Below are positions 2-50,373 of a stretch of DNA of 64,000 bases, piece after piece. The first letter of the stretch is position 1. Each line of letters opens with the position of its first letter. The position numbers and the translations under genes were made by a program. Source of the DNA: a virus (taxonomy: Duplodnaviria > Caudoviricetes); IMG/VR virus record IMGVR_UViG_3300021387_000688. The stretch is one strand, 5' to 3'. The notes under the pieces were generated by a model, which was not told the origin of the DNA, did not search any database, and worked only from the letters and a program-made list of their open reading frames with translations.

Positions 2-3000
2 GAAATCCCGGAAGATGAGCTTTGGGATAATGAAAATAAGAAAGTAGATCCTTCTAAATATACAAACGCTCAATTGATAGATATGTACAATGACATGAGT
101 CGTCAAGGTATGTATGAAAAATCTCAAACTATTGGGCACAGTAATGTATCTATTACAGATACAATGTATAGTATCAACACTATTGAATTGCCAATAGAAA
201 GTTTAGTATTTGTAAAAGATTTCATTAAAAACAATACACGTACTGAAAGGGTAAAGAAGTATAGTCCTACATTAAACGTAGATTACTTCTATAAAGAATA
301 TATTGTTAACGATCAAATTGAATGGGAAGGGGAATTAGTAGAAGCTCATGCCCTTGTAGATATTTCTACTTCTGGGTCTGATGTAAAAATGTATTCTTTG
401 AAAACTTATAAAGGTTCTATTTTCGGAGACGATGTAGTAACAGTAGAAGAAGATATTTCTAGGTTGGTAGAAGAAAGGGGTGAAATCTTAGCTTGTATTA
501 TTGATAACTACGAAGGAAAACATTTCGTAAAAGTTTATGAAACCTTTACAAGAAATGGAGATTGCTATGTTAAGTTCTACAAGATGGGTGAACCTGATTT
601 GAAAATGTCTACTTTTGAAAACAAAGATATTTATTTAATCTTGGACCTCGATGAAGAGTTGAGTGACGCAAAGGTAGAAGAATTTTCAAAAGAAAGAAGA
701 AAAACCAAGAAAGTAAATATTTATAGAAACGACCAGTTCTTCTTAATTTCTAGAAGTTGGGAGCCTATAACTCAAGAATCCCTAAACTATATGTTGGATA
801 ATACAGAATTGGATGCACCTGAAAATTATGCACGTACTTCAATTCTTTCTACAAAGACTACTGTTCCTAGAGTATTAACAGAATTGGAAGACACTGTAGT
901 ATTCGATGGTAGTGCAGATGATGCAAAAATTGGATTGGTAAAAGATTTAATAGCAGAAAACAAATCTTTGTATTTGGATTCTTCTATTCGTATATTGCAA
1001 CATGTTCCACTTAGTGTTAGTACAACTCAGTGGAGTGAGGATTATGGAGTACTTTCATTCTTATATGAAAGTGGAGACTTGCCTGCACAGATTTCTTTCT
1101 ATGATGTAGATATTTCTTTGTACGATCCTCTTCAAGAAAATGTAAACTTCTTAAAGAGGGATGACTTGCAAGACTTAGGAATGGATGAAGCTCAAAAGGT
1201 TTATAACAGAAGATATGTTGTTTGGGGTAGCGTTGTATGGGATGCAAATACAGATCGATCTGTTGAAGTTTTGAGAACTATTTGGGCATCTTATTTCAGT
1301 AACTTCGAAATATACTCTACTGAAGATATTATTCCTTCAGAGTTGGTTGCACAATCTTTAGGTGTAAAGAATACTTATTCTCAAAATATTTTGAATTATG
1401 ATTACGCAGAGAATGAAGCTAATCCTACAGAACACTGGAATGTTAGTGTCGTATCTAACTTGAGAAGTAATTCTGTTACAAGTGGTGTAATTGCAAACTG
1501 TGCAGCTATTAGATTCCAGGAAGAAAACTTAACTGGAGTAAATAAGGATGCAAATGGTAACATCCTTTTTGAAAACGTATTTGGTAGAACAAAAGCCCTT
1601 GATGTAGGAAACATGTTCTATAGAACAGGTGTTGACGATCCAAGTGCAGGTTTATCATTTGGTGAAGAGCCTATTACTTTTCATAACTTAATAACAGAAG
1701 ACTGTGACTTAACAATTTCTTACGATAACGATTTTAAAGATATCGTCTTTATGAAATATAACCCAGAAAATGCTACTGTTACATTGCATGTAAAGAAAGG
1801 TATCGAAGAAAAGAATAGTAAGTTTACAGAAGGTAGTTGTAGTTATAATAACTTGGATAAACTTATTTGGACAGATGTTACTTCTACAGGATTATTCTCT
1901 GGAGTGTTAGCTAAAGTAGATGTTTTACATGCTAAGATAGATATTGTAAAATATTTGGAATGTATACTTAAAAACTATTCTGTTTTGCACCAGCAAGAAT
2001 TAAAAGGTGAAGTAGGCACTTCTTATACAAATGTAGATGAAAACAATAATGTAAAGATGACCGACATCTTAAATTATACTTATACTTATGCAACTATTGG
2101 TTCTGTAATTCCAGTATTTGCAAGAATGGTAGGTAGTGAATTAGTTATTACAGGATTCTTGTTAGATAAGAAAGGTGAGAATAAATACCACTTACATGTT
2201 TTCCAATTCGGTGCTCCATTTATTGCTCCGGTTGCAAAGACTGTAATTAATACTGACAAATATAATAGATTCCCTGTATTGGAAAAAGACTTTGAAAAAG
2301 TTGTTAAAGAGATTTCTGTATATCCTATTTATATTCCTACTTCAACTTATGATTGTAACTTGAATTTTAAGACAACGGGTGGAGATATTATTCCTAATGC
2401 TATCACAAAAGATAGTCAAGTAGAAGTTTTGGATGAAACTTTAGACACTGAAGATGGGGACGAAGGTAAAATAGATAGAAGCCGTTTGCAGATATCTTAC
2501 TTAGATACAGATGGTAAAAAGAAAAATATCTTCTTGAATAATAACCTTAAGAGATTTAAGGAGTATAAGAATTGCACTGTTTCTTTAAGTACAAGGGCTG
2601 ATGAGGATAACGAAAATTACTTGGATTGTATAATGACTTTTGATGGAGAAGATTTAGATCTTTCTGCTGAAGGCCTTATATCTTTGTACGATATGAAAGT
2701 TCCTGATTTCCGTACAAGATATGATCGTGCATTAGACAATGAAATTAAAGTTGTAGAAAGAAATACAATCTTGGATGATTTACACATTACTGCTTTCAAG
2801 CCTAATGATTTAGATCCTTCTAAAACAGATTTGATTTTGATGAATCCTTTAGATGCAAGTAACTTTAATGTAACTAATGCAATTGAACAACTTACCCCTA
2901 TTGACGAGAATGTACACACTCAGAAGGTTGTAGGAGGAAAAGGTTATATTGCAGATTTGTGGGAAGATGCAGGTTATCCAAAGATTGGATATTCTTACTA

Positions 3001-6000
3001 TAAGAGAGCTTTCATTGCAAATGGCGTAATTTCTCCAAACGACATTACAAGGGTTACTTTAAGTGATGAATCTTTAATAGAAGATGGTATAGATTTGACT
3101 AAGCACATAACTGCAGATGACCCAGTTACTTTGATTTTACACAATCCTCCTTCTTACTATATTGGAGCAGGTGTTAATCTGGAATTGGATACAGGTACAT
3201 ATAGTACTGCAGATGGTCCTTATAAAATCTTGCATGAAGAAACAAAATATGAAGGAGAAGATAAGGGTTCTTCTATCAATTACATCTTGGCCGGTAAACA
3301 TTCTATTGTAGTTGTAAAGGTTAATTTTGAAAACACAAAAGTTCAAGTTACAAGCGTATTTGAACTTCCAGAAGATGTTTCAAACATTAATTACGTTAAT
3401 GGAATATTCACTTTAGAAAAGAATGGTGAAACATATGAATTAAGGTCTACTGGAAATGGTAATTTACCTATTACCACAGATATGTTCTATGCAGGTCAAG
3501 TAAATAATGATACTGCAACTTTCGATGGTTACGTAGCTGTAAAGACTGTATATGATGGAGAAAATACTCAAGATGTAAGAATTAATAAAGTTTCTCAATT
3601 GGTAAATGCGCATGCAGGGTATGAAGATTTAGGACCCGTTAGTATCAAAGCTATTACAACTGTAGGTAGATATACAATCAAGTTTGATGATAAAGATCGA
3701 GTTTACGGAGAAGCTAGATACGGTGGAGAACCTTTAAGATATGTTACAGATCCTGCAGCATTAGAGATATTTGATGCTAGTGGATTTAAAGGTCAAATAT
3801 TAACTGAAGGTTCTGAAGACGATCCAGGATCATTCTCTGTAGAAAGCATTGAAGGTCTTACAGATTTGGATAAATTGAAAGACTGGATTGTTAAAACATT
3901 GAGGAATCAATTCGGTGGAGACCCAACTTTAAGCGACCCTCAATTTGAAGGCTCTATGGAAAAGAGTCAGGATTACTATTACACTACTGCTCAAGGTTCT
4001 GGATTTGCAGCATCAAAGAGTGAATGGGTAAAAGATGAGTTGATGAGAACTCTTCTAAACATCACTGCAAATGATGTATACAATAAACCAGAAGGTACTA
4101 AGCGCTGGAGAAAGGTAATTTCTAAAGATACAATTTATGTACCTACTCTTGAAGAAAGAGACGTAGAAGTAGTTTACGATGATAACTTAACTAAATGGCA
4201 GAAAGTGTATGTAATAAATTCAATAGGTAATACTCTTCTTAAAGATTGTACAGACCCTGAAACATTACAGGCTTTCGTAAAGGCTATCTTGCCAACCAAC
4301 TTTATTACAAGAAAAAGACCTATCATAAGTACTGAAGCTTCTTTGGACGGTACAAAAGTATTATGGGATCAAGACGCTTGTGCACTTACAGTATTTGATA
4401 AAGATGGTAACATTTCTAACAGAATTGCATATCAATACTTAGGATTAAATTACCCTGTAGATCCTGATAAGAGTGGAAAGAATGCTACAGAAGATTGGCT
4501 CATACCTAATAGAATTTATTTGAAAGCAGATGGTACTACTTTCAACAAAGCATTTAATATGGAAACTAGTGATGGAGAAGGTACATCCGAATATGACCAA
4601 ATGTATAAAGAATTTGGAAAGTATGAAGTAAAGGATAAAGTAAATGGTACAATCACAATAGTGGATGGTGCTTTATATATGCCAACTCTGTTAGCTAATG
4701 TTAATGAGGATGACATAGAAATTGTTACTCCAGATGATATGAAGTTCCAGCAGTTAGTTGCAATTTCGAAGGACGTTGAAAAGTGGAACGCCTATGTAGA
4801 TTATATGAAGAAGTTGTCTTGGTTGGCACCTGATTATAGTAATTATATGGTTTTCAATTCTCCTAACGCTATAATCAACTTCCAGAAATTAGATAATAGA
4901 TTGGAAGGATTAAAGAACGCTGGCAAGATTACTGAAGCGCAATATAACAATGCTTCTAATGTGATTAAAAATATTAACACTACTGCAAAAGATGATGATT
5001 GTGCAACAGGTATTATTAAAGGTTCTCCTTATTTGTCTTTCGATAATTATAAGAGTAATCTCTACTTAACTTCTATAGGAGTAGGAGTAGATAGTGGAAC
5101 TAACAAACCTTTGTATTTCAAATCTTTAATTACCAACTCTGGTATATTAATGAGTAGTGGTAAAGAAGCTTACATTTACGGTACAATGAAGTGGCCTACA
5201 TTTACAGAGATTAGAAATCTTTGTGAAGATTCTATCAAGGCAAAATATTCAAAGATGGAAGGTACAGAAAAGGATAATGCTGTAAATGAAGATTTGAATA
5301 AGTTGGCAGATTCATTAAATGCTAGATATGCTAAGTTTGAAACTACTAGTGAAGATGGTATGGACCAATATAAAGTAGGAGAGAATGAAGATGTAGCTCC
5401 TGCAGATACTAAGTTCATGATAAGGGTTAATTTAGATACCGGAGCTATTACACCTATGGGAGGAATGGATGCAGGTAAGACTGCTTCATTCAACAACTTA
5501 TATGCTACTACAATTGTTAATAATAAGATTATGGCAATTACAGATGTAGGTATAGGAGAATTAGGATCTGTAGGTGGTAGTGAATTTAATCCTAGTGTAG
5601 CAGGCGGAGAACAGATTAATGCATTTACGGGAGAGTTGATAAGTGCATTAAAAGATGCTAAAGCCTTTAATGGAAAAATTTCAAGTGAAGGTTCTAAGTT
5701 AACTTTAGGATCAAGTGGAACAACTGTTCATAATCAGCCAGCCGTATTTACGAAGGTAGGTGTAGTAGGAGCTACTAGTTTCACTTTGGAAGACGATGTC
5801 ATTATGGCAGATGAGGGAGACAATACTCCTATCAATGTAACAATGGTTGTAATGGATACAACTAAAGATAACTTCCAATACGGTTATGGGGATGTAGAAG
5901 GTTTGGATCAATTAAATGCCGCAGGTTCTATCTTCCAAGTAAACAGTTCTGAATATGCAGACTTTGCAACTTATGAAATTGCAAACGGCGATCTTATAAG

Positions 6001-8071
6001 TTACTATGCACAGAAGACTGAAGGTGAAGAAAAAACTTGGATATCTGTAGGAAGTAAAATACAAGGATTGTTCGAACCTAGACAAATCGTCAATAGAGAA
6101 AGAGATGAAAATGATACCATCCAGATAGAAAATGTAAGCGTTGCCAAGAGTGTTTATCCTAAACCTTCAGATATTGATGATGAATTGTTAGGTAACTTCT
6201 ATGACTTAGATGCAGAAGGAAATATTAAAACTGTAAAGAATACTTATGGTAGAGAAATCTTAAGGCTTGCTGATTCTACAGAACAGTGGGGTAACTTAAT
6301 TAAGAAAGTTCCTGGACTTGAAGGAAAAGATAAAATATTAGGTGACTTAACAAGTATGGTAACTTACGAAACATTGGAAGGTGGTTCTATAAGTATAACC
6401 CCTACTGTATATCCTGAAGAAATAGATCCTTCGAAGGGAGTTGCTTGGCCAGGAGAGTTAATTGGAAAGGGCTATGATTATGTAAGTAAAATAGGTCAAC
6501 CTATTCCAAAGCTGGTAAAGGTACCTAAAAACAGTGTACAGAACCTTCCTTATACTCAAGCAGAATTTATGATAAATGGAGATTCTGACATTTATGTAGG
6601 AGAAGATTATTTGAAATTGACCGCCACATTCAATAAGCCAAATGCATTATCATCTGAAAAATTCGATGATAATAAAATGAATAATACCCAAGTAACTTCT
6701 ACAGAATTCTATAAAGATTTTACAGAGAATCATCCTTACACTGCTGCTAGGGATGGTTTAGTTACTAGACAGTTGAAAATTAAAGTAGTTAATCCTACTA
6801 CTCAATTGCCTAAATTGGTAGATATTTCAAATTATAGAGTTACAAATAGCAATATATCTAAAGTCTTTAGTATACTTGGTACAGAATCTACAGAAATTGT
6901 AATACCTGCAAACGGTTACGGACAATCTGTAAGAGGTGTTTATACAAAACCTTCTGAATGCAAGTTTGAAGATGATTTATTCTATATGAAAGGAGAAGTA
7001 CAAAACGAGTACGGCGAAACTATTTACTGGGTAGACGGTAGTGATTTGACAGTGAAAGAAAATGGATTACCTGCAAACTATGAACCTATGAGAAGAATGG
7101 TTTACAGATCTTTCAAACAGGCCGATGCACATTTACTTCCAAAGTTGGCTACTAAAGAAAAGACTTCTTATGAAAACCCAGCTGTTGTAATTGACTTGAC
7201 CCAAGAAAAACTTAGAGTAGATAATGCAAATACAATTGTATTTAAGTCTGAAGATGTTTATCCAGATTTCTTTATTAGTAAAGAACGTTCGGCTTCTGCC
7301 AATAAACAAGCTGCTTACAACCAATTCTATTCTAACGTAGAGTTCTCTTGTAGGGTTATGTACACCAAGTTAGGATTTGATGAATCTTCAAGACAAGTTG
7401 ATTTAATTGCAACAGCGGGATTAGATCGTCAGTATGCTACAAGATTGTATACAGATAAAAAGCATATTCCTACATTTACAAAGTATTCTATAGGTGGAGG
7501 AAAGTTTGCAAGAACTGGCGGTTCTTTCGTAGCAGATAATAAATTGTATAGAGTTAGCGAAGATGGTAGAAACCCAATGTACTTAAATGAAGAAGGTGAG
7601 TTAACTCAAACTCCTAATAGTTTAGGACCTGTACATGCAATTGACTATGAATACTTATTACAATTGTATAAGGGATTGGGAAACATCTTTACTTCTATTA
7701 AAGTAACAAACGATGTAGGTTCAAGTGCTTATGACTTGAGTGGTTTGAATATTTCTAACAACTGTTTGTTACCAGATTGGAAAACAAAGACTGTAGGATT
7801 TACTAACAACTCTAACTACAAGATCTTCGTAATGATGAAAGATTTGAATGAAGAAGATTTCGCTTACCAGACTGTAGAAAATGAGGCCGGAAGTAAATCT
7901 TTGTTGAAGATTACTACTCCAACTACAATCTCTGTAGAATATCCTAACACCTTTAAGGAATACAACTTAGCTTACATTAAAGATAAACAAGGAAATATTG
8001 TAGCTAAAGCTTACTTTGATAAGCATAAGGTTAAGGAAGATAGTTTGTTAGTATTCTCTAAATTAAGTTAA
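2..8071 (+). CDS. Giant putative virion structural protein (>2680 aa, 5' end outside the window)
   Basis: The reading frame is already open from position 2 (GAA ATC CCG...), upstream of the listed start at 74. Acidic, low-complexity-free composition typical of large phage virion proteins; no catalytic motif recognised. Confidence 0.6.
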   Translation, partial: EIPEDELWDNENKKVDPSKYTNAQLIDMYNDMSRQGMYEKSQTIGHSNVSITDTMYSINTIELPIESLVFVKDFIKNNTRTERVKKYSPTLNVDYFYKEYIVNDQIEWEGELVEAHALVDISTSGSDVKMYSLKTYKGSIFGDDVVTVEEDISRLVEERGEILACIIDNYEGKHFVKVYETFTRNGDCYVKFYKMGEPDLKMSTFENKDIYLILDLDEELSDAKVEEFSKERRKTKKVNIYRNDQFFLISRSWEPITQESLNYMLDNTELDAPENYARTSILSTKTTVPRVLTELEDTVVFDGSADDAKIGLVKDLIAENKSLYLDSSIRILQHVPLSVSTTQWSEDYGVLSFLYESGDLPAQISFYDVDISLYDPLQENVNFLKRDDLQDLGMDEAQKVYNRRYVVWGSVVWDANTDRSVEVLRTIWASYFSNFEIYSTEDIIPSELVAQSLGVKNTYSQNILNYDYAENEANPTEHWNVSVVSNLRSNSVTSGVIANCAAIRFQEENLTGVNKDANGNILFENVFGRTKALDVGNMFYRTGVDDPSAGLSFGEEPITFHNLITEDCDLTISYDNDFKDIVFMKYNPENATVTLHVKKGIEEKNSKFTEGSCSYNNLDKLIWTDVTSTGLFSGVLAKVDVLHAKIDIVKYLECILKNYSVLHQQELKGEVGTSYTNVDENNNVKMTDILNYTYTYATIGSVIPVFARMVGSELVITGFLLDKKGENKYHLHVFQFGAPFIAPVAKTVINTDKYNRFPVLEKDFEKVVKEISVYPIYIPTSTYDCNLNFKTTGGDIIPNAITKDSQVEVLDETLDTEDGDEGKIDRSRLQISYLDTDGKKKNIFLNNNLKRFKEYKNCTVSLSTRADEDNENYLDCIMTFDGEDLDLSAEGLISLYDMKVPDFRTRYDRALDNEIKVVERNTILDDLHITAFKPNDLDPSKTDLILMNPLDASNFNVTNAIEQLTPIDENVHTQKVVGGKGYIADLWEDAGYPKIGYSYYKRAFIANGVISPNDITRVTLSDESLIEDGIDLTKHITADDPVTLILHNPPSYYIGAGVNLELDTGTYSTADGPYKILHEETKYEGEDKGSSINYILAGKHSIVVVKVNFENTKVQVTSVFELPEDVSNINYVNGIFTLEKNGETYELRSTGNGNLPITTDMFYAGQVNNDTATFDGYVAVKTVYDGENTQDVRINKVSQLVNAHAGYEDLGPVSIKAITTVGRYTIKFDDKDRVYGEARYGGEPLRYVTDPAALEIFDASGFKGQILTEGSEDDPGSFSVESIEGLTDLDKLKDWIVKTLRNQFGGDPTLSDPQFEGSMEKSQDYYYTTAQGSGFAASKSEWVKDELMRTLLNITANDVYNKPEGTKRWRKVISKDTIYVPTLEERDVEVVYDDNLTKWQKVYVINSIGNTLLKDCTDPETLQAFVKAILPTNFITRKRPIISTEASLDGTKVLWDQDACALTVFDKDGNISNRIAYQYLGLNYPVDPDKSGKNATEDWLIPNRIYLKADGTTFNKAFNMETSDGEGTSEYDQMYKEFGKYEVKDKVNGTITIVDGALYMPTLLANVNEDDIEIVTPDDMKFQQLVAISKDVEKWNAYVDYMKKLSWLAPDYSNYMVFNSPNAIINFQKLDNRLEGLKNAGKITEAQYNNASNVIKNINTTAKDDDCATGIIKGSPYLSFDNYKSNLYLTSIGVGVDSGTNKPLYFKSLITNSGILMSSGKEAYIYGTMKWPTFTEIRNLCEDSIKAKYSKMEGTEKDNAVNEDLNKLADSLNARYAKFETTSEDGMDQYKVGENEDVAPADTKFMIRVNLDTGAITPMGGMDAGKTASFNNLYATTIVNNKIMAITDVGIGELGSVGGSEFNPSVAGGEQINAFTGELISALKDAKAFNGKISSEGSKLTLGSSGTTVHNQPAVFTKVGVVGATSFTLEDDVIMADEGDNTPINVTMVVMDTTKDNFQYGYGDVEGLDQLNAAGSIFQVNSSEYADFATYEIANGDLISYYAQKTEGEEKTWISVGSKIQGLFEPRQIVNRERDENDTIQIENVSVAKSVYPKPSDIDDELLGNFYDLDAEGNIKTVKNTYGREILRLADSTEQWGNLIKKVPGLEGKDKILGDLTSMVTYETLEGGSISITPTVYPEEIDPSKGVAWPGELIGKGYDYVSKIGQPIPKLVKVPKNSVQNLPYTQAEFMINGDSDIYVGEDYLKLTATFNKPNALSSEKFDDNKMNNTQVTSTEFYKDFTENHPYTAARDGLVTRQLKIKVVNPTTQLPKLVDISNYRVTNSNISKVFSILGTESTEIVIPANGYGQSVRGVYTKPSECKFEDDLFYMKGEVQNEYGETIYWVDGSDLTVKENGLPANYEPMRRMVYRSFKQADAHLLPKLATKEKTSYENPAVVIDLTQEKLRVDNANTIVFKSEDVYPDFFISKERSASANKQAAYNQFYSNVEFSCRVMYTKLGFDESSRQVDLIATAGLDRQYATRLYTDKKHIPTFTKYSIGGGKFARTGGSFVADNKLYRVSEDGRNPMYLNEEGELTQTPNSLGPVHAIDYEYLLQLYKGLGNIFTSIKVTNDVGSSAYDLSGLNISNNCLLPDWKTKTVGFTNNSNYKIFVMMKDLNEEDFAYQTVENEAGSKSLLKITTPTTISVEYPNTFKEYNLAYIKDKQGNIVAKAYFDKHKVKEDSLLVFSKLS

Positions 8072-8121: not shown

Positions 8122-8835
8122 TTAGATTGAATTGATCAAACTGAACAATTCTGCTCTAGCTTCTGGCTGAGTTTCAAATACCCCGCGAAGTACTGAAGTT
8201 GTAGTTGTAGCATCTTCAGATTTAACACCACGAACTGCTACGCAGCTATGAGTAATATCTTTCATTACTACTGCACATCCTACTGGGTCCAATACATCTA
8301 CCATTGCATCTGCAATCTGTTCACTCAATTGTTCCTGAATCTGGAAACGATGTGCATAATCTCTTGCCATGCGAGGAATCTTTGACAATCCACATACTTT
8401 GTCTTTTGGAATATAAGCTACATAAACAAATGAATCATCTTTATATGTTCCAAACGGTGCAATATGATGTTCACATTGTGAGAATAACTTAAACTTGCAA
8501 ATAACAATACCATTCTGGAAGTAAGATGTTTTCTGTACTCCAGTCTTTTCTCCATTAATGGCATTACCGCGTTCAACGTCAAATACTTTTTTGATATGAC
8601 GTTTTGGATCTACCATGTATCCTGATGCAAATGCTTCAGTCCAATACTTTGCAAGACGATGAGGAGTTTCTTTCATTCCATCTGGAAGCTCTTCTTCATC
8701 TGTAAGTCCCATTGTTTTTTTAAGAAGATGTGCAAACATTGCTTCATCTTCTTTGTTAAAAATGTTTTTGATTTCTACCTCAGATTCGGTAGTTTCATAG
8801 ACAGGCTGTCCGCCTTTGTAATTAATGTGTTTCAT
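8122..8835 (-). CDS. folE: GTP cyclohydrolase I
   Basis: Motifs ETPHR, SQCEHH..PF, GLSKIPR, R.QIQE.L..QIA, H.C...RGV, T.T..LRG.F; AAGGAG RBS. Confidence 0.95.
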   Translation of the reverse strand: MKHINYKGGQPVYETTESEVEIKNIFNKEDEAMFAHLLKKTMGLTDEEELPDGMKETPHRLAKYWTEAFASGYMVDPKRHIKKVFDVERGNAINGEKTGVQKTSYFQNGIVICKFKLFSQCEHHIAPFGTYKDDSFVYVAYIPKDKVCGLSKIPRMARDYAHRFQIQEQLSEQIADAMVDVLDPVGCAVVMKDITHSCVAVRGVKSEDATTTTSVLRGVFETQPEARAELFSLINSI

Positions 8836-11598: not shown

Positions 11599-11814
11599 TT
11601 ACTCTTCTTCTGTCTCGTCAGGTTCGTCTTCTACCATATCGGCAGCTGACTTTAATTCCTCTGCGAGCCCTCTAATATATTCGGCCAACTCTGCATTTGT
11701 TTCAGAATTTGTATAACAACCTCTTACACAGTTTCTAACTTCATACATTAGAGATTCAAGATTAGAGAATGATTCTTCCAAATCATCCCTTACATTTTCG
11801 CTCCAACCGTCCAT
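11599..11814 (-). CDS. Small acidic hypothetical protein
   Basis: 71-aa ORF with AAGGAG RBS, overlapping the upstream gene. Confidence 0.7.
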   Translation of the reverse strand: MDGWSENVRDDLEESFSNLESLMYEVRNCVRGCYTNSETNAELAEYIRGLAEELKSAADMVEDEPDETEEE

Positions 11815-12964
11815 AAACTTTACGCTCCTTTGGTTTAATATCTTTATTTAGTTGATCCTTCAAATCATCTTTTGTGAGAATACCTTCTTCCATCAATTCG
11901 TTTAAAGCTTCCAAAGCTTTTACTTTATTATCTTTCTTTGTTTCTTCTTCTGATTTAATAGATTCGTAACCCCTTATCAAAGAGAGTTTGCTATAAATAT
12001 CCTTTTTAGAAACATGGCAGAAATAATCTTTTACGCGAACAATGTATCCGAAATAATCTCCGGCTTCTTTATTTTCTTTATAAGATTCCCCATCCCTGTA
12101 ACAATGCCAAGTAATCCAAAGATTGTTCTTTTCTTTTAAGAGGTCACAAGAAGGATGATCCATCCCGTGTACAGGAATGACTACATCATATTTCTTTTCA
12201 AAATCTCTTACAACTTCTACATTCTCCCAATGCTTATATTTTCTCAAAGGGAATTCTAATTTAGGAGATTGTTCCCTTCGGTACAAAGCCATTCTTGCAT
12301 TATAAAGGTCTTTAAGATCTTCTTCATAAGAAAGTGCATCGTCATTCATAATAAAAGCACATTCAACGGCCTGTACATTATTCTTTACGGTTTCTGGAAT
12401 CATGGCTGCAAAGAAAGCGCTGAAAGGTTGCTGTTGCATTCCATTTGGATCGAAATTACGATTGTATAAGTCCGGTCCAATCATTGTTAGTCCTTTTACT
12501 CTTTGCTTACCATATACTTTTTGCAAAACCTTTGCAGCGAGACATGCGGCTAATACACTTTCTCCTCCAAAGTTTAATCCGTATAGAACTACATTTTCGC
12601 CTTTTTCTAGATGACGTATTGCAAGGGAAGTGGAATCGTATCCCCCAGAATACATGATTGCATAAGTAGGAACTTCATAAGAATAAGGTTCTCTGTCGCA
12701 AGAGAATATATTTAACAAACGGGTACCTTCAGTTTTAGAAGGATCTTCTTGTAGATACTCCATATTTAATTTCTTAAACATGTTGCCAATAAGTTTGTTA
12801 AAAACGCTTTCTTCGTTTGTAACCCTCCAGATGTCTATCCTTCCATAAGACCAAGATTCTGAAGGTAAAACACATTTTTGGTAACTTAAGTGTTTTGCAT
12901 AATAATCTTTATAAGGGGTTTCGGCCTCCATTACTTCAATTTTTTCTGATGGATTAGAACTCAT
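11783..12964 (-). CDS. QueC-like PP-loop ATP pyrophosphatase (divergent)
   Basis: AIMYSGGYDSTSLA PP-loop; lacks the C-terminal Zn-binding Cys cluster of canonical QueC. Confidence 0.6.
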   Translation of the reverse strand: MSSNPSEKIEVMEAETPYKDYYAKHLSYQKCVLPSESWSYGRIDIWRVTNEESVFNKLIGNMFKKLNMEYLQEDPSKTEGTRLLNIFSCDREPYSYEVPTYAIMYSGGYDSTSLAIRHLEKGENVVLYGLNFGGESVLAACLAAKVLQKVYGKQRVKGLTMIGPDLYNRNFDPNGMQQQPFSAFFAAMIPETVKNNVQAVECAFIMNDDALSYEEDLKDLYNARMALYRREQSPKLEFPLRKYKHWENVEVVRDFEKKYDVVIPVHGMDHPSCDLLKEKNNLWITWHCYRDGESYKENKEAGDYFGYIVRVKDYFCHVSKKDIYSKLSLIRGYESIKSEEETKKDNKVKALEALNELMEEGILTKDDLKDQLNKDIKPKERKVYGRLERKCKG

Positions 12965-15454: not shown

Positions 15455-16249
15455 ATGAGTGATTTCGTAGAATTATATAGGATTAGTCCTAAAGCATTTG
15501 TAGTTACAATTTCTATCGTTTCTTTGATAGTTGTATGTGCTGCTGTTGCTATTTTTTATTTCATTGCAAAGAATAAGATGTCTGTAAGGATCGGTTCCTT
15601 TAAAATCGATATGCATGAAAAGGAATCTGTAAAAGAACCTGAAGACAAATTAAACAAAGAAATCTACCAAGCTAAAAAGAATGTAGAAGATTATGTAAGA
15701 TCTGTTTTAGCTAAACAATACGATCAGGTAGTTCCTTTTTTACAGTCCCTCCGACCTATTTTTAATCGATTAGTTTTTAGTATTTTGAATGAAGCTGTAG
15801 CTGAAAGTTTAGGAGTTGAAAGAGAAATCCGGATTCCGAAGCCAGATGAAAAATGTAAAGTTCCAGGTAGTCATTATAAAGTAGAACTTGTAAAAACATA
15901 TATTACAGAACCTCAAACCAGATTGTTCACTAACCTTGTTGAAAGTACAGTAGATTCTTTAATTGGTAAACTTGAAAGAGAAATCTACAATATGTTAGTT
16001 AATAACAATATTGGAAAGAATAGAGATGAAGTTAGATCTTATATACATATGAAGAGTGAAAACATTGTCGGGGTTATAAGAAATGTTTTGTGCGATGCTT
16101 ATAATAATCTAAGTAATAAGAATTTATTTGATACTAAGAAGTGGTGGTTAGAAGTAGGTATTAACTATCCTGAAGATTGGATTGAAGATAAATTATATAA
16201 ACTATTCGCGCTTTGTATGCAATGCAGATATAGTGATTTTGATGAGTAG
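15455..16249 (+). CDS. Membrane-anchored hypothetical protein
   Basis: Single N-terminal TM helix; CTAATT motif upstream. Confidence 0.7.
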   Translation: MSDFVELYRISPKAFVVTISIVSLIVVCAAVAIFYFIAKNKMSVRIGSFKIDMHEKESVKEPEDKLNKEIYQAKKNVEDYVRSVLAKQYDQVVPFLQSLRPIFNRLVFSILNEAVAESLGVEREIRIPKPDEKCKVPGSHYKVELVKTYITEPQTRLFTNLVESTVDSLIGKLEREIYNMLVNNNIGKNRDEVRSYIHMKSENIVGVIRNVLCDAYNNLSNKNLFDTKKWWLEVGINYPEDWIEDKLYKLFALCMQCRYSDFDE

Positions 16250-16255
16250 AAAAAT

Positions 16256-16279
16256 AGCCTCCTTTTCAGGAGGCTTTTA
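16256..16279. terminator. Bidirectional intrinsic terminator
   Basis: AGCCTCCT-tttc-AGGAGGCT-TTT. Confidence 0.8.
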
Positions 16280-16293: not shown

Positions 16294-17136
16294 TTATTTT
16301 GCTTCTTCTTGAGTACCTTCAGTAGCCATCAAAGACTTGTTGTAAGCATCCTGGCGAAGATAGATTTCAATATTTCTACGAGTCCTGTCTTCAAGATCCT
16401 TACTTGCATTTACACCAAAGAGTTCATCCGCTTCTGCTCCACGTTCGTAAGCTTCAGGAGTAACTGCCTTATCATAAACCATTGTAATCTTTTTAATACC
16501 TACAATAGAGGTTGGGCTATACAACCAATCTCCTGGAGCCTGGTGAGTTACAACTTCAATTCTTGTTAGGCGGATATCTGTCATTTTCAAACCAGCTACT
16601 GGAATCTGCGCGGTAGATCTATTTTTAGGGTCTTTAACATATTCAGTAAAATCAATATGGGCTGTAAATTCTACCATTGATTCGATTGTAGATGTAGCAT
16701 CTGCGGCTTTGAATTTTCTTTTATTCTCTTTACCATTCTGTAACCAAAAGATTTCAACTTCATCATATCCACGATTAAGAGTCATTGTAATATCCATACT
16801 CTTAATGGCAGCTGCATTTGTGATATAACCTGCACCGTTATTAGCTTCATTGAAAGAAGGCTCTACGAATGCGATTGCATAACGGCTGTCTGAATATCTT
16901 GGAGCTGAATCAGTTCTAATACAAAGTCCATACTTTTCAGAAAGTACTGGATTAAAAAGATTTCTACCTGGCTCGTAAACACCTGAAATACCTACGGCTC
17001 TAGAATTTTCGATCCAATCATAACCTGTGTCAAGAACATCAGCTTTTGTATTACAATCAAATAAAGTTGCTTCATCTGCAAATACAATACCTGTAAACAT
17101 TACAAGCGCTACCAAAATTGAAATAAACTTCTTCAT
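16294..17136 (-). CDS. flaA: Spirochete flagellar filament sheath protein FlaA homolog (divergent)
   Basis: Sec signal peptide ending VFA|DEATL. Segments GAGYITNAAAIKSM, EYVKDPKNRSTAQIP, KKITMVYDKAV, DELFGV and LMATE parallel Treponema FlaA as recalled (GYGVVKNVGVLKSI, YISDVRSRE..YP, KIIYDKAV, EDLWGI, KLATE). Adjacent to flaB. Confidence 0.8.
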   Translation of the reverse strand: MKKFISILVALVMFTGIVFADEATLFDCNTKADVLDTGYDWIENSRAVGISGVYEPGRNLFNPVLSEKYGLCIRTDSAPRYSDSRYAIAFVEPSFNEANNGAGYITNAAAIKSMDITMTLNRGYDEVEIFWLQNGKENKRKFKAADATSTIESMVEFTAHIDFTEYVKDPKNRSTAQIPVAGLKMTDIRLTRIEVVTHQAPGDWLYSPTSIVGIKKITMVYDKAVTPEAYERGAEADELFGVNASKDLEDRTRRNIEIYLRQDAYNKSLMATEGTQEEAK

Positions 17137-17171
17137 TTTGTTTTATTTTCTCCTTTAATTTAATGCAATAT

Positions 17172-17193
17172 AGGGGAGGTAAAATCCTCCCCT
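17172..17193 (-). terminator. Hairpin between flaB and flaA overlapping a TATATT -10 for flaA
   Basis: On the minus strand AGGGGAGG-atttta-CCTCCCCT runs directly into TATATT. Confidence 0.55.
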
Positions 17194-17241
17194 TCAACTT
17201 TTTATTTTACTCTGGCACGAACCCACCTGTAGTTGGCGATT

Positions 17242-18093
17242 CTATTTTAACAAGGCAAGTACGTTCTGAGAAGAATTGTTTGCCTGAGCCAACATAGCTA
17301 CAGATGCCTGTTGCAATACTTGGTTCTTAGTATATTCTGTAATAGACTGAGCCATATCAGTATCGCGAATACGAGATTCTGCAGATTGTGTATTTTCGGC
17401 CGCAATGTTGATACCCTTCTGGGCCATCTCCATACGGTTCTGGTAAGCACCAAGATCTGCTCTTTGCTTTGTTACATTTTTCAAAGCTTCATCTACCGTT
17501 GCAAGGGTTGTACTTGCTTCATCTGGACTTGCGATAGAAATTACATTAGATTCCTCTCCCTGCTGCCCCTTCAATCCAAGCGCAGTAGCTGTCATTGTTC
17601 CAATGTAAGCTCTAATATTCTGATCCATATTAGCTCCAATCTGGAACTGCATAACCTGATCTGACTCCCTAGAGAATCTACCTGTCAAAAGGTTCATTCC
17701 ATTAAATTGTGCAGAAGATGCAATTCTATCTACTTCAGATACTAACTGGCTTACTTCAACTGCAATCTGCATGCGGTCTTCATCTGAATAAACTCCATTT
17801 GAAGCCTGTACTGCCAATTCTCTAATGCGCTGAAGTACATCTGTAGTTTCTGCAAGATAACCTTCTGCTACCTGAACAAATGAAACTGCATCACCGATGT
17901 TTCTTGAAGCCTGATTAAGACCCCTAATCTGAGATCTCATTTTCTCACTTACTGCCAAGCCTGAAGCATCGTTACCTGCTTTGTTAATTCTTTCTCCTGA
18001 AGAAAGAGCTTCTACTGATTTCTGAAGGTTCTGTGTGTTAAGACCTTCCATTCTGCTTGCGAACAAGCTACTCATGTTGTGATTAATGATCAT
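17242..18093 (-). CDS. flaB: Flagellin, spirochete FlaB type
   Basis: MIINHNMS start, [63 protein letters not shown]; 283 aa with no variable outer domain. Confidence 0.97.
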
Positions 18094-18122
18094 AAAATAA
18101 CCAACTCCTTTTGTATTTTATT

Positions 18123-18144
18123 TAAGTAACATCCCTGCTACTTA
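18123..18144 (-). promoter_or_regulatory. CsrA-type GGA hairpin in the flaB leader
   Basis: UAAGUAGCA-GGGA-UGUUACUUA 9-bp stem with GGA in the loop; second GGA in the RBS. Confidence 0.7.
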
Positions 18145-18152: not shown

Positions 18153-18180
18153 TTATCGGGACATTTCTTAAAAAACTTTA
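18153..18180 (-). promoter_or_regulatory. Sigma28 (FliA) promoter of flaB
   Basis: TAAA-N16-CCCGATAA versus consensus TAAA-N15/16-GCCGATAA; extended -35 TAAAGTTT. Confidence 0.85.
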
Positions 18181-18181: not shown

Positions 18182-18346
18182 TTATACTAATAAGTCTATC
18201 AACTTTTCGGCCTTCTCTTCTTCTGTTAAAGGCTTTTCTTCTTTAGACTTCTCAACGTTAATCTTAATACTTTCTTTATTTGCATTAAGATTTTTTCCTT
18301 GCATTATGGAGGAGACCGGCTCCTTTATTATTGGATTTATTTTCAT
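18182..18346 (-). CDS. Small hypothetical protein (54 aa, not in ORF track)
   Basis: MKINPIIKEP...EKAEKLIDLLV*; RBS context CAAAAGGAGTTG identical to that of flaB. Confidence 0.65.
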   Translation of the reverse strand: MKINPIIKEPVSSIMQGKNLNANKESIKINVEKSKEEKPLTEEEKAEKLIDLLV

Positions 18347-18430
18347 ATGTCAACTCCTTTTGACTGCTACAAAATCCTTTTGGATACCAATTACTTAATT
18401 TAGTAATCCCCTCCATAACAATATAGAATG

Positions 18431-24100: not shown

Positions 24101-24135
24101 TTTTCTATTATTTATCCTTCCTAACTAAATAATTC

Positions 24136-28295: not shown

Positions 28296-30422
28296 ATGGC
28301 TTTTAGTTTGAACAAAAAAGCGAACCAAGCCGTTTCATCAGAATCAGTATGGAGAGTAGACCATATTGTTGGAAACGAGTTTGTAACCGTCGTTCTCGAT
28401 TTACCTATTCGAGAAATGTCTAGTCTTGATAAAGAAATCCTAAAATATCTAGAAAGTATTTTATCTAAAGCAGGAATTGCTTCTTATGTAATTACTTCTG
28501 CGCTTTCTAAATATCCTAACGAAAAAGAGCTTAAAAAAGGTCTTACAGATTATTACATCAATCACAATTCGGGTTGGTTTGAACAGATTGTTAAACCTGC
28601 AAGAGAAAAAGGAATGACGGCAGATGTTATTGTAGCATTCGGTCCAGCCTTATATCAAATTACAAAAACAGCAACAGACTTCACAGTAGATGATTTAATC
28701 TATCCTGCATTTGAAAATTATGTTTATGTAGGACACGGATATGTAGGAGATTATGATGCATTTATATTCCCGCAGTATCCAATTCAGGAAGTTTTCGTTC
28801 CAGGACTTCAAGATGGAGTTGAACAAGTAGAACTTGGTTGTTGGAAAATGAATTTCATGGTTTCTGTATTTAAGAAAATTGCAGCTCGTAAATATCAGTT
28901 ACCGGACGACATGGGTCCAGTTGAATTAAGAGAGATTGGGGAGAATTACGATACAGATAAAGAAGGTGCAGTAAAAGAAACTGAAGAGTTTTTGAAAACA
29001 CATTTCAATGAAGATGTATGCGCATTCGACTTGGAAACATCTGGTTTCAATGCATGGAAATGTAAGATTAGATGTATTACACTTTCATTTGATGGTAACG
29101 TAGGTTATTATTTGGAATGGAAGATTTTCAAAGAAAATCCTTATTTAATTGATTTACTTTCTGAAATGATGTTAACTGCTAAGCATCGTGTAACAGTTAA
29201 TGGAAAGTTCGATATTAAGTTCCTTTGGGTTAATGGCTTAAGTTTGGATGTAAATGTAAACGAAGATGCAATGACATTGAGCCATGTATTATGTTCTGGA
29301 AGACATAAAGGTTTGAAAACGAATGCATTCTTCTGGACCCCATATGGTGGTTACGATCACAAACTTGATGAGTATCGTGATAACTTGAAAAAGAAAGGAA
29401 TTAAGGACCCATCATTCTATGATATTCCAAAAATAATTCTTAGACCATATGCGACTATGGATGCTATCATAACAGTTCGTATTTGGAGAGCAGGTCTTAA
29501 ACGTATTCAGAAATTCGATTTTGAATATCCTACAGAATATCCAATCGAGTATACAGGCGGACATGCATATGGTGCTTATGAATGGTACCAGAACGTTATG
29601 CAGATTTATCCAATCATTTGTAGAATGGAATATGATGGCATGTATGTAGATGAAGAAATCATCGAAATGCATAGAAACATTTTCAGAAGAAAGATTGATG
29701 AAGCTCGTAAAGAGTTGAGTAAGATTTTTGGAACACCTTATGATTTCAAATATGGTTCAGCTGCAGCTTTAGGAAGACTTTTGGAAGAAAAAGGTTGGCC
29801 ATGTCATGGTAGAGCCAAAGATGGTTCATATGAAACATCGGATGATTGTTTCGTAGAATGGACAAGAGATGGTATGCCAGGAGTTAAATGGCTTAAGAAG
29901 TTCCGTGTAGCAAATACATGTTTGAGATCTTATCTTGGAGTAACTGAAAAGACAGTAGATCAGAAAAGAGGAACAATTAAAGTTGAACAAACTGGTTGGC
30001 CTCAGTATTGGGTAAAACATCCAGATGGAAGTACTCGTATTCATTGTAACTTTACAGTATGTGGAACAGAAACTTTCCGTATGATTTCTCGTGAACCAAA
30101 CTTGCAGAATGTGCCAACTCATTCACAGGAAGGTTCTATTACAAAGATGTCATTTACAGTTCCTCCTGCAGCCGCTGCAACTATTACAGATGAAAATGGA
30201 AAGAAGTGGTGGATTACAGAGTTAGGAATTATTAATACAGAACGTGGTTATGTAGCAATGAAGGCTTTGACAGAAGACGATACTATTGTAGATATCGGAG
30301 AAGAAACTACTTTGGAATTTGATGAATGGATGGCTAAAGGAATTAAGCCAATTGGAATGGAAACAATGTTAGGTAAACACAATCAAATTCTTGAAGGAAA
30401 GTTTGTATTACAGGAGGAATAA
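28296..30422 (+). CDS. polA: Family A DNA polymerase, fragment 1 (UDG-like N-domain, 3'-5' exonuclease, thumb) plus a non-polymerase tail
   Basis: ExoI FDLETSG, ExoII NGKFD, ExoIII YATMD, RIH.NF...TETFR..SREPNLQNVP; polymerase homology ends at MSFTVPP just before motif A. Confidence 0.92.
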   Translation: MAFSLNKKANQAVSSESVWRVDHIVGNEFVTVVLDLPIREMSSLDKEILKYLESILSKAGIASYVITSALSKYPNEKELKKGLTDYYINHNSGWFEQIVKPAREKGMTADVIVAFGPALYQITKTATDFTVDDLIYPAFENYVYVGHGYVGDYDAFIFPQYPIQEVFVPGLQDGVEQVELGCWKMNFMVSVFKKIAARKYQLPDDMGPVELREIGENYDTDKEGAVKETEEFLKTHFNEDVCAFDLETSGFNAWKCKIRCITLSFDGNVGYYLEWKIFKENPYLIDLLSEMMLTAKHRVTVNGKFDIKFLWVNGLSLDVNVNEDAMTLSHVLCSGRHKGLKTNAFFWTPYGGYDHKLDEYRDNLKKKGIKDPSFYDIPKIILRPYATMDAIITVRIWRAGLKRIQKFDFEYPTEYPIEYTGGHAYGAYEWYQNVMQIYPIICRMEYDGMYVDEEIIEMHRNIFRRKIDEARKELSKIFGTPYDFKYGSAAALGRLLEEKGWPCHGRAKDGSYETSDDCFVEWTRDGMPGVKWLKKFRVANTCLRSYLGVTEKTVDQKRGTIKVEQTGWPQYWVKHPDGSTRIHCNFTVCGTETFRMISREPNLQNVPTHSQEGSITKMSFTVPPAAAATITDENGKKWWITELGIINTERGYVAMKALTEDDTIVDIGEETTLEFDEWMAKGIKPIGMETMLGKHNQILEGKFVLQEE

Positions 30423-30425
30423 AAG

Positions 30426-31388
30426 ATGTTAAAGATTACTAAAAGATCTGCTACAATAGATGATTTTTTGAAAATGAAAAAGAAAGAGCCATTTGCAACA
30501 TGGCGACAGACATCTAAGCTTGAAAACTTCGGTTTGATGTTCGGTGCACAGTATTCAACATTCGCCCACATTCTTCAGACAGCAGAACCACCTTTTACAA
30601 TTGAAGATTGTAAAAACTATATCAAACTTGCACATGCAGAAGATGTTTATAATGAAATGTTGATGAAGGCTCAGAAAGGAAGACACCGTCTTTATGAAAT
30701 GAGACCTAATGTAGAATGTTGGTATTATGCAACAGCAAAAGTAATGCGTGAAGCATTCTTGAATGGATATAGTGGATTGAAAGAACGTATTGAACGTGAA
30801 CATAAGTTTGCTATTAAACATTACTATACAAGAAACTGGTATGGTTCTGTAAGATGGTACCCTGAGTTAGCTTATATGAATATTGATCCAATTGAGAAAA
30901 CATTGAAGGGTGCAGATAAAAAGTATTTTGCATATATCTTCTCTCATTTAATGAACAACGCCGCAAACGGTCCTGTACAGAGTGGAGAGACGGTATTTAT
31001 TTACAATGGTTGGATTCATGCAAATAAAAAGATGAAGGAATGGGATTTAAGATCTCAGATTTGTAATACAATTCATGACTCTTTGGATGCATATTTGTGG
31101 AAGCCAGAAAAAGAATTAATGAAGGCTTTGATTAATGCAAGTGTACATGATAAGATTCGTTATCCTCATGAAAATGTATTCCACTTCATGGAACCTGAAA
31201 TCTCTGACATTAGAGATTATGAACATATTACAGGTTATAAAGAAGGGGAGTTTACAGGAGATGAAAAGATCTTAGGACACTTCTATAAACATGGTGAAGA
31301 AGAGAAAGCAGCCCCAATTGCAGATGCTCTTAAAGCTTATAATGAAACTTGGGGAACCAATTGGGAATGGACATTGCCATTAATTTAA
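30426..31388 (+). CDS. polA: Family A DNA polymerase, C-terminal fragment (motifs B and C)
   Basis: RQTSKLENFGLMFG (motif B), AANGPVQS, TIHDSL (motif C); own GGAGG RBS. Confidence 0.92.
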   Translation: MLKITKRSATIDDFLKMKKKEPFATWRQTSKLENFGLMFGAQYSTFAHILQTAEPPFTIEDCKNYIKLAHAEDVYNEMLMKAQKGRHRLYEMRPNVECWYYATAKVMREAFLNGYSGLKERIEREHKFAIKHYYTRNWYGSVRWYPELAYMNIDPIEKTLKGADKKYFAYIFSHLMNNAANGPVQSGETVFIYNGWIHANKKMKEWDLRSQICNTIHDSLDAYLWKPEKELMKALINASVHDKIRYPHENVFHFMEPEISDIRDYEHITGYKEGEFTGDEKILGHFYKHGEEEKAAPIADALKAYNETWGTNWEWTLPLI

Positions 31389-36008: not shown

Positions 36009-36068
36009 TTTTGCAATACACTAAATAAATACAAGTATACTTAAAAAACTTCAATTGGAGGAAATTAA

Positions 36069-43100: not shown

Positions 43101-43231
43101 TGGATGCATTAAACAAAGTGGTTAGTAGATTAGAGGATTTGAAGAATTCCCAAGACGCTAACAATTCAAGATTGAATTCTTTGATAGTAACTATGGATGG
43201 TATCGGTCAAAGGATGAGTCTCAATATATAA
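40169..43231 (+). CDS. Putative tail tape-measure protein
   Basis: 1020 aa, Ala/Leu/Ile-rich repeated hydrophobic helices, downstream of tube and chaperone genes. Confidence 0.7.
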   Translation: MAKVTNETVNKLNSTVSKNTSAVDKSTNASKKSASSSDKNTSAANKLDNTIKANTKASNANANTIDKAADSIEKSVGILKDEGINLTESIDNVKKEIQELPEKWQELLQTVMEMNNKILDLNESKPEIPEGSTDNPKREEDEEKESENPLEKEFEKLSFDTSGTDISILTSANNLPNMMGAGLALIHNSLQQVVGAITDGFSQMTSLLVGNLNKVNNSEEAKNTEAGENQVTPLKSSIAEFFNGLAGPMQSIASALLLVSLAAAVLNAIPLESMTVTVTMQLFTFLTATFTALSLISLGYQKVAHIVDPEQQDNPANLMNMVNQLSKMMLSIGAMVAVSVAIVTVLKSNMSYVMAGLAMSFGTMALSLISISLLSEMALPEVQEGSKPNQLMQDFNKMLLITSAIFLVNALLFPIIREGAIASMVIMGVMSFAIIKMMESVKELAEIDPEVLEQLNGLFTRITVLFGIMGAMVIILGLLPLNVVIQGTITVMAMTGLIAGLVYMLTTSAKKLDSLKPDTLEQLNTMIIASTVMIGLLGLLVIVLGLMPLTAVIQGIVAVTIIAALPIALIKIFAKVAQQSSQLVQALEGIVIATVVSLATAGLAWLLITLLGGFTIQQVLTTMATMGLMLALSLVVTGAIVILGVIFAALISGPQAALIPMAIVGIAIAGTVSLAIAGFARLLSSIFGSEEEAIKAQQAAKAVMMTAIALTTIAVSIVTIGALAIPMMIAMPLALTALEGLTRFINTLNAPEGILAILAASGQMDLSGVYAQVANISRLCIALATLNIPLSILALNAPLLLISLSICTTSMFMIGASLVLLSGSLRVIQALTFVDVSPKITELSNAIQSLNNLAQVVSNFTGMDIAKVLMVKAALGYVASFEKSLGRIGNNAATENIVNLTNNLSNLANTAPGLNALAEAITRVSAATASLNQVQNSNAQSIERLTGQAASRNEFLSNPSLRQESSNKSNSSNFEPILDALNKVVSRLEDLKNSQDANNSRLNSLIVTMDGIGQRMSLNI

Positions 43232-49282: not shown

Positions 49283-49290
49283 CCAATAAA

Positions 49291-49315: not shown

Positions 49316-49334
49316 TTTTTACCAATTAAAAAAG

Positions 49335-50372: not shown

Positions 50373-50373
50373 T

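Follow-up and report, generated by a model that had tools for sequence, protein, structure and literature searches.

The 64,000-nucleotide stretch of tailed-phage DNA analysed here (IMG/VR record IMGVR_UViG_3300021387_000688; hereafter, the window) carries on its minus strand two adjacent genes for components of the spirochete periplasmic flagellar filament. The upstream gene, flaB, encodes a core flagellin, and flaA, 105 nt downstream on the same strand, encodes a divergent homolog of the filament sheath protein. These two genes, together referred to as the cassette, and the signals around them are arranged as follows, with the type of evidence in brackets.

17242-18093, minus strand: flaB, intact gene for a 283-amino-acid (aa) FlaB3-like core flagellin with D0-D1 only (Pfam domains, solved-structure matches, single phage clade, ratio of nonsynonymous to synonymous substitution rates or dN/dS)
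16294-17136, minus strand: flaA, gene for a 280-aa divergent, shortened FlaA with a Sec-type N-terminus (relatives, family profile, fold, alignment)
18153-18180, minus strand: sigma-28 (FliA)-type promoter of flaB, composed of TAAAG, a 16-nt spacer and CCCGATAA (motif match)
18124-18143, minus strand: hairpin in the 5' leader with GGGA in its loop (GCAGGGAUGU), candidate CsrA site 1 (sequence and fold)
18105-18110, minus strand: flaB Shine-Dalgarno sequence AAGGAG, including a second GGA, candidate CsrA site 2 (sequence)
17172-17193, minus strand: GC-rich hairpin between flaB and flaA, without a good U-tract on this strand
17150-17156, minus strand: flaA Shine-Dalgarno sequence AAAGGAG (sequence)
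16256-16275, bidirectional: terminator hairpin closing both the flaB-flaA unit and a convergent gene for a 264-aa protein (hairpin and terminator scoring)

The hairpin between the two genes scores as a terminator on the opposite strand only, and is a candidate partial stop or RNA stabiliser. From this layout, flaB and flaA appear to be transcribed as a single unit, inside which a hairpin would attenuate or stabilise the RNA.

The cassette resides in a huge tailed phage

The window has a G+C content of ~33% and is packed with open reading frames (ORFs) that belong to no family. It also holds a capsid gene.

54480-56189, plus strand: major capsid protein of the Gp23 (T4) type (protein atlas, homolog in the complete genome G005)

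This ORF scores 0.97 to Gp23 clusters in a protein atlas and has weak tblastn matches that fall under annotated capsid genes. The ORF itself has no direct Pfam match, and its homolog (1.1e-69) in the complete IMG/VR genome G005 passes the Pfam cut-off for Gp23 at 8.7e-11. By these homologies it is a Gp23-type major capsid protein and the element a tailed phage. The window also encodes a DNA polymerase A, a 5'-3' exonuclease, GTP cyclohydrolase I, a QueC-like protein and a eukaryote-type topoisomerase IB. An identical FlaB sequence occurs on contigs of up to 397,621 bp, and the carrier is a roughly 400-kb tailed phage of the sheep rumen.

Flagellar genes are unexpected in a phage, and the initial annotation had named a chimeric join with a host contig at 16250-18430 as the outcome that would overturn it. 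Eight independent assemblies cover the cassette region at 98-100% identity (ENA ERZ12302819/21/50, Logan SRR873601/3/4/6 and JGI 3300002641). Five of them are colinear from window position 22216 to at least 12978, crossing both cassette edges, and colinearity extends as far as 10967. The other three (Logan SRR873603/4/6) end inside flaA at nearly the same place, ~16843-16909, which suggests strain-level flaA variation within samples. Such breaks might also arise if a piece of Treponema chromosome had been wrongly assembled into phage sequence. Against this stand the agreement between different samples and assemblers, the recurrence of the cassette in further phage lineages, among them IMG/VR genomes that have terminal repeats, and a FlaB that is at most 77% identical to the searched cellular genomes (best 80 loci). 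Third-position G+C is 0.32 for flaB and 0.23 for flaA versus 0.43 for flaB of T. bryantii, values that fit the phage and not the host. Because independent assemblies are colinear across the cassette edges we reject a chimera, and an artefact of this kind is very improbable.

Related genomes point the same way. DNA alignment between the window and lineage L003/L004 is limited to the 1.8-kb cassette (79.9%). Both a FlaB gene and a FlaA-family gene are found in G007 (300,878 bp, terminal repeats, CheckV 100%), G005 (385,934 bp, 100%) and G006 (239,841 bp). An adjacent phage-type flaB-flaA pair also lies in L056 (JAZNWZ010000130.1, 306,108 bp), binned as 'Candidatus Fimenecus sp.' (Bacillota), which is probably a mis-binned huge phage; Gp23 was not detected in this metagenome-assembled genome (MAG). 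Searches of the related records with Pfam Terminase_6N, Terminase_6C and Phage_sheath_1 gave nothing clear. Comparison of window positions 44001-64000 with 401 Treponemataceae genomes at the DNA level returned chance-level short matches and no spacer-like perfect match. Overall, the huge-phage context, the capsid gene and the complete IMG/VR genomes bear out the initial placement of the cassette among phage genes, and its third-position composition and the terminator at 16256-16275 agree with the phage composition and terminators first described.

One further related flaB and flaA pair lies on a 940,564-bp scaffold (L001; ENA ERZ28612970 scaffold_1), with five genes between the two, including an NS-type endonuclease, followed by a GGDEF protein. 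The scaffold sequence is ORFan-rich and phage-like, and may represent an exceptionally large phage genome, if real, or a mis-scaffold.

FlaB is a FlaB3-type core flagellin

The 283-aa product of 17242-18093 matches Flagellin_N at 2.9e-40 (138 bits, Pfam cut-off 26.6) and Flagellin_C at 1.4e-24 (86.7 bits, cut-off 23). The closest solved structures are T. denticola FlaB3 (10PP, 10pp_A; 2.6e-111) and FlaB1 (10PL, 10pl_Ba; 7.8e-110), where the assignment of chains in PDB 10PL, 10PM and 10PP to T. denticola filament proteins follows Wang et al. 2026 (PMC13439194). More distant solved flagellins score lower, at 5e-83 for Leptospira FlaB1 and ~1e-60 for Bacillus Hag. By its domains, its structural matches and its position in FlaB trees, the protein is a flagellin of the spirochete FlaB type, and the intact core flagellin reported initially is confirmed.

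Among 185,579 species genomes, considering the best 80 loci, phage FlaB has cellular relatives of 66-77% identity (Treponema genomes, 69-77%; T. bryantii, 75%). Almost all of these loci are labelled Treponema or Spirochaetia from rumen, gut or mouth, and three bear a different MAG label. Its nearest relatives in cells all belong to Treponema of the gut or rumen, which upholds the proposed spirochete host. Three Treponema genomes examined for paralogs have three FlaB genes each, a tandem pair and a third copy elsewhere. Phage FlaB is nearest to the downstream, 281-284-aa member of the tandem pair, which by length, loop structure and PDB score is FlaB3-like.

Alignment to the T. denticola proteins shows that named contact and glycosylation residues are retained. 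All eight inter-subunit contact residues named for FlaB1 (Q88, R91, E92, D106, R223, E225, R244 and N277; PMC13439194) are conserved in phage FlaB, as are all four O-glycosylation sites of FlaB3 (S115, S126, T137 and T167, as given in the same report). Two FlaB1 residues contact FlaA. The loop that bears one of them, N147, is present in a short version, as in FlaB3, and the other, D162 within GANMDQ, is conserved. The variability profile along the phage FlaBs parallels that of host FlaB, and only positions 16 and 221, of 283, separate all phage FlaBs from all host FlaB3-like copies. Since position 16 is variable in T. denticola too, we attach no functional claim to it. Taken together, the alignments predict a fully competent FlaB3-type core flagellin that could be exported and polymerised.

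FlaA is a divergent, shortened sheath homolog

The product of 16294-17136 begins with a Sec-type N-terminus, recognised on visual inspection and when aligned with FlaA precursors: KK, a hydrophobic core of 14 residues and VFA/DEA (the slash marks the start of the mature protein). Family members share this N-terminus, and it lines up with the part of the Treponema FlaA precursor that is cleaved off; in the solved structure of T. denticola FlaA the chain begins 21 residues in. Because the signal peptide is conserved, a role for FlaA as a virion component was rejected.

Homology to FlaA was established through intermediates. The 280-aa protein has no direct match in Pfam, NCBIfam, PHROG or phage-genome searches. 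It has 187 close relatives in metagenomes (76-89% identity), and a profile of this close family recovered only 29 cluster representatives among 1.8 billion proteins, including full-length proteins of 266-294 aa (E 1e-31 to 1e-4); a PDB search with the close-family profile, A1, returned no FlaA. In a broader alignment, A2, 13 of 20 members match PF04620 (FlaA), the best at 3.5e-22, and these distant relatives are 25-30% identical to the window FlaA. The A2 profile matches solved T. denticola FlaA at 2.4e-27 (positions 99-274 to 171-336) and the long canonical FlaA of three Treponema genomes at ~1e-30 (6e-31), with no match to the short paralogs FlaA1 and FlaA2 of the same three genomes. Even the window FlaA alone, searched with phmmer against 53 host ORFs, ranks the three long FlaAs as its top three matches (6.5e-5 to 4e-3).

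Structure prediction by AlphaFold2 (AF2) gave a predicted local distance difference test (pLDDT) score of 53 on a shallow alignment and 83.7 on a deeper one, and the latter model was used. Its best fold match is Leptospira FlaA1 (9cyn; Foldseek 1.2e-5; VIA-align Z 11.0 over 169 residues, root-mean-square deviation 4.2), with generic carbohydrate-binding jelly rolls close behind at Z 8-10. Phage and Treponema FlaA have in common the signal peptide, the A/DEAxLxD mature start, the motifs GxGxIxNxxxIKS, NxxYIxDxxxR, YDKA and FG, and a C-terminal helix ending LMAxE. Identity to T. bryantii FlaA is 26-34% for the phage FlaA types, and the window FlaA is ~28% identical to host FlaA. On the basis of relatives and family profile, and with a compatible fold, ORF 16294-17136 is a divergent, shortened FlaA, and intermediates, profile and Treponema alignment together substantiate the earlier description of a shortened, diverged FlaA with a signal peptide.

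The phage proteins are ~80-90 residues shorter than Treponema FlaA. All phage forms have three deletions relative to it, of ~25 residues (after the first strand), ~12 and ~30. Residues were mapped manually onto T. denticola numbering, and by this mapping the parts of FlaA that touch FlaB, the S86 region and the helix with K317, are kept.

Phylogeny and selection

All phage FlaBs (17 in one of the trees) form one clade in maximum-likelihood trees, with a Shimodaira-Hasegawa-like approximate likelihood ratio test (SH-aLRT) support of 96 in both trees. The clade takes in copies from IMG/VR viral genomes of 190-386 kb, and it joins at or near the base of the FlaB3-like group, with support of 99 in one tree and an unresolved join in the other. 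A single phage clade is consistent with one old capture from Treponema.

Within the window's lineage, dN/dS is 0.06-0.16 for flaB and 0.065-0.12 for flaA, with synonymous sites almost saturated in most of the pairs compared; purifying selection on both genes is strong there. In this lineage FlaA is also as conserved as FlaB (87/87, 77/79 and 74/77% identity). Between lineages, FlaB remains 70-90% identical and FlaA splits into separate types with 23-45% identity to one another. L129 and L001, for example, are 85% identical in FlaB and 31% in FlaA, and L129 and L127 are 90% and 26% identical, respectively. The initial contrast between a conserved FlaB and a diverged, shortened FlaA therefore stands relative to the host and between phage lineages, but does not extend to the window's own lineage, where conservation and selection are equal. 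FlaA accompanies FlaB in most phage lineages and the linkage persists across deep lineages, although in one lineage flaA lies 52 kb away from flaB. The most divergent FlaA-like gene, of 246 aa, is that of G005.

Regulatory signals upstream of flaB

The sigma-28 pattern has a sole match in the 64-kb window, at 18153-18180, ending 59 nt before the flaB start codon. Its elements equal those of the mapped sigma-28 promoter of T. denticola flaB2 (-35 TTAA, -10 CCGATAA; PMC9481697), and similar motifs are found at the FlaB2-like genes of three Treponema genomes. Upstream of phage flaB, the strict motif occurs in 3/12 lineages (that of the window and two more) versus 0.002 expected per 160 nt, and one of those two has a perfect TAAA-N16-GCCGATAA. 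In the remaining lineages flaB has promoters of another kind. Downstream of the promoter, the window's flaB leader contains a 9-bp hairpin with GGGA in the loop, followed by the AAGGAG Shine-Dalgarno sequence.

The loop, GCAGGGAUGU, resembles the high-affinity CsrA consensus. A GGA-loop hairpin combined with a GGA-containing Shine-Dalgarno sequence is shared by the majority of phage flaB leaders and the FlaB1-like paralog of the host, and in candidate hosts a CsrA gene lies next to flgL. In T. denticola, flaB2 is under sigma-28, fliW-csrA is present, and CsrA sites lie near the Shine-Dalgarno sequences of flaB genes (PMC9481697). In line with established knowledge and with that report, the leader has the architecture of CsrA-controlled flagellin mRNAs, and its CsrA sites are candidates. 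No FliMN_C, FliW or CsrA was found in nine related viral records, most of them fragments. Because they have no FliW, CsrA or FliM/N genes of their own, the related phages appear to depend on host machinery. The sigma-28 and CsrA-type leader signals fit either of the two roles raised in the initial annotation, filament remodelling and titration of FliW/CsrA.

Proposed role of the cassette and alternative explanations

We propose that the two genes form a filament cassette supplying parts that are used in the host periplasmic flagella and delivered by host routes, a reading to which we assign a probability of about 0.5. It builds on gene identity, homology, phage context, selection and regulatory motifs, and it predicts export, assembly and any effect on motility. 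In the window's lineage, host RNA polymerase carrying sigma-28 would transcribe flaB, and the CsrA-FliW circuit of the host would set the level of its translation. With host chaperoning, FlaB would then pass through the flagellar type III apparatus of the cell and be built onto the distal tips of periplasmic flagella already present. FlaA would serve as a minimal sheath subunit that has a signal peptide, the jelly-roll core and the C-terminal helix but lacks three surface segments specific to the host protein; it would reach the periplasm through Sec and attach to the filament there. An infected cell could then build or extend filament segments from phage parts, with motility and cell mechanics sustained or altered during a long infection. 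We favour this reading because the assembly and glycosylation residues are conserved, both genes are selected, their linkage is persistent and host regulators are needed. With flaB wired to host flagellar switches, the phage probably feeds its own parts into the host swimming filament, which could sustain, retune or cripple motility.

Several observations weigh against the proposal. The initial annotation had named a failure of FlaA hidden Markov models to hit 16294-17136 as a refuting outcome, and the direct model does fail: PF04620 gives no match to the window FlaA even at E<=10, and the direct link between the close family and long host FlaAs is weak (hhalign 57%, E 1e-4, same register). 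Here the transitive, profile and fold evidence overrides the failure. The strict sigma-28 motif is confined to 3/12 lineages. In G005 (L127:6001-6848), an otherwise complete genome, flaB is frameshifted after about codon 43, which may reflect cassette decay or a sequencing error. T. denticola FlaB3 forms the unsheathed distal filament (PMC13439194), which makes a FlaB3-like protein an awkward companion for a sheath protein. The manual mapping raises a further difficulty. R104, K109, E342 and E345 are FlaA-FlaA lattice residues in T. denticola; the ~12-residue deletion takes away the R104 and K109 segment, phage FlaA terminates before E342 and E345 with loss of the acidic C-terminal extension, and several further lattice residues are not conserved. 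With lattice segments absent and other lattice residues not conserved, normal co-assembly with host FlaA is doubtful, and the phage protein may form a different sheath or disturb that of the host.

These losses lend themselves to a reading in which the cassette sabotages motility: the minimal FlaA would act as a dominant-negative sheath subunit alongside an unsheathed-type, FlaB3-like core, softening filaments and slowing or stopping the cell. Phage FlaAs without the R104/K109 segment and the C-terminal extension nonetheless keep the FlaB-touching S86 region and C-terminal helix, FlaB3 does form unsheathed filament, and T. denticola motility suffers when the sheath, or its contacts with the core, are lost. 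We think sabotage unlikely, since the residue mapping is manual and from a non-host species, poisoning needs no intact, strongly selected flagellin, and the FlaA types, separate from one another but each conserved internally, have the look of functional structural proteins. A different departure is that the FlaA-like protein has left flagellar duty and become a binding protein with a jelly-roll fold, periplasmic or secreted, whose ligand could for instance be glycan or peptidoglycan, such that only FlaB is flagellar and the linkage is historical. Carbohydrate-binding modules do come just below FlaA1 structurally (Z 8-10 versus 11.0), identity to host FlaA is only ~28%, and one lineage has separated flaA from flaB by 52 kb. 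This is quite improbable given the FlaA-specific motifs that are kept (GxGxIxNxxxIKS, NxxYIxDxxxR, YDKA and C-terminal LMAxE), the flaB linkage across deep phage lineages and the strong selection.

Filament assembly might also be incidental to a regulatory decoy, in which the flaB leader titrates CsrA, or FlaB titrates FliW/FliS, so that the CsrA regulon is rewired or host flagellin shut down. The likeness of the hairpin loop to the CsrA consensus, the second GGA in the Shine-Dalgarno sequence and the recurrence of GGA-loop hairpins across phage lineages would all suit such a decoy. So would CsrA beside flgL in the hosts, fliW-csrA and CsrA sites at flaB genes in T. denticola (PMC9481697), and a reported precedent for CsrA-linked phage control of flagellin (PMC13418256). 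However, the same leader features are expected of any normally regulated flagellin gene, and a decoy leaves unexplained both the retention of a Sec-exported FlaA with flaB in most lineages and the conservation of all polymerisation and glycosylation residues. We consider a decoy unlikely. Within the proposed supply of filament parts, a more specific and decidedly tentative version is that huge Treponema phages encode a matched filament, with a FlaB3-like core and a lattice-deficient minimal sheath, that deliberately retunes the stiffness and curvature of the periplasmic flagella and hence swimming and shape. The sheath subunit would here be split into rapidly replaced types over a core that stays 70-90% identical, and switching of FlaA type might be adaptation to differing sheath sets of hosts or to a counter-measure by the host.

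Relation to known systems

The phage proteins resemble those of the T. denticola filament, which has a FlaB1/2/3 core and FlaA as its major sheath protein (PDB 10PL, 10PM and 10PP; PMC13439194), in FlaB D0-D1 architecture, contact residues and glycosylation sites, and in the signal peptide, mature N-terminus, jelly-roll core motifs and C-terminal helix of FlaA. They differ in being phage-encoded and in the shorter FlaA, which lacks three surface segments and is ~28% identical to its host counterpart. Moreover, the phage gene for a FlaB3-type core adjoins the sheath gene, whereas host flaA and flaB genes occupy separate loci.

The nearest phage precedent is the Enterobacter prophage FRphi, which encodes the flagellin FliC-P and an RNA-guided repressor, TldR (Walker et al. 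2026, PMC13418256). In both cases the phage brings its own flagellin isoform, and that of FRphi changes host filament make-up (PMC13418256). FRphi is a small temperate siphovirus of a host with external flagella, whose TldR represses host fliC (PMC13418256); here, in contrast, the carrier is a ~400-kb spirochete phage, a sheath protein is also supplied, and the flagella are periplasmic. Because the flagella are periplasmic, neither escape from immunity nor a defence against flagellotropic phages is a likely motive. A TldR/TnpB-type gene was sought beside the cassette, with no such Pfam match among the neighbours; a TnpB-like gene lies 9 kb away in L003 only. The CsrA-FliW partner-switch acts on flagellin translation at B. 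subtilis hag, B. burgdorferi flaB and C. jejuni flaA (PMC9481697). Phage flaB resembles these systems in a leader GGA within a hairpin loop, a GGA in the Shine-Dalgarno sequence and a sigma-28 promoter upstream, candidate elements recognised here in the DNA sequence. Unlike those systems, the elements stand on a phage gene, and the phage relatives searched have no csrA or fliW of their own.

No account of a phage-encoded spirochete FlaB or FlaA was found in the full-text literature, and two surveys of jumbo phages do not mention flagella. The importance of phage flagellin has so far been demonstrated only for small temperate enterobacterial phages and external flagella (FRphi). What sets the present case apart is a whole clade of 190-400-kb gut and rumen spirochete phages that keeps a selected flagellin together with a spirochete-specific sheath protein, in some lineages with host flagellar class-III signals on the phage flagellin gene. 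If the products enter the filament, a virus would here be controlling an internal organelle on which both motility and the shape of the cell depend. The naturally occurring range of minimal FlaAs would reveal which sheath parts are dispensable and complements the 2026 cryo-electron microscopy structures of Treponema filaments. The cassette also allows many uncultured huge phages, as a large group, to be assigned to Treponema as host.

Neighbouring genes and other features of the phage genomes

Two genes flank the cassette in the window.

18182-18346, minus strand: 54-aa acidic ORF ending IDLLV, directly upstream of flaB (kept in lineage L003)
15455-16249, plus strand: convergent gene for a 264-aa protein with an N-terminal membrane anchor (adjoins flaA in L003 and L129)

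The 54-aa ORF has no Pfam match and is found at the same position in lineage L003 with 53% identity (E 3.9e-10). A motif, ACTAAATT, lies ~50 nt upstream of it. The 264-aa protein, which has no Pfam match and no family, stands beside flaA in lineages L003 and L129 with 75-77% identity, and this membrane-anchored protein accompanies the cassette.

Several features elsewhere in the window were recorded. Four giant ORFs on the plus strand, at 2-8071 (>2689 aa), 43259-49282 (2007 aa), 32559-36008 (1149 aa) and 40169-43231 (1020 aa), have no Pfam or PHROG match. GTP cyclohydrolase I and the weakly QueC-like protein, encoded at 8122-8835 and 11783-12964 (both minus strand), hint at 7-deazaguanine DNA modification. 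The eukaryote-type topoisomerase IB at 60775-62475 (minus strand) comprises Topoisom_I_N, Topoisom_I and Topo_C_assoc and is found in L003 too. DNA polymerase A at 28296-31388 (plus strand) occupies two same-frame ORFs of 708 and 320 aa, split by an in-frame stop plus one codon (...LQEE, stop, KM...). In L003 it is a single 856-aa ORF, and the split could be read-through, a split enzyme or an insertion. The sequence ACTAAATW is depleted in the window (7 matches versus 16 expected); four of the seven lie just upstream of ORF starts, at 18397-18404, 24124-24131, 36020-36027 and 60659-60666, and the element is possibly a phage promoter.

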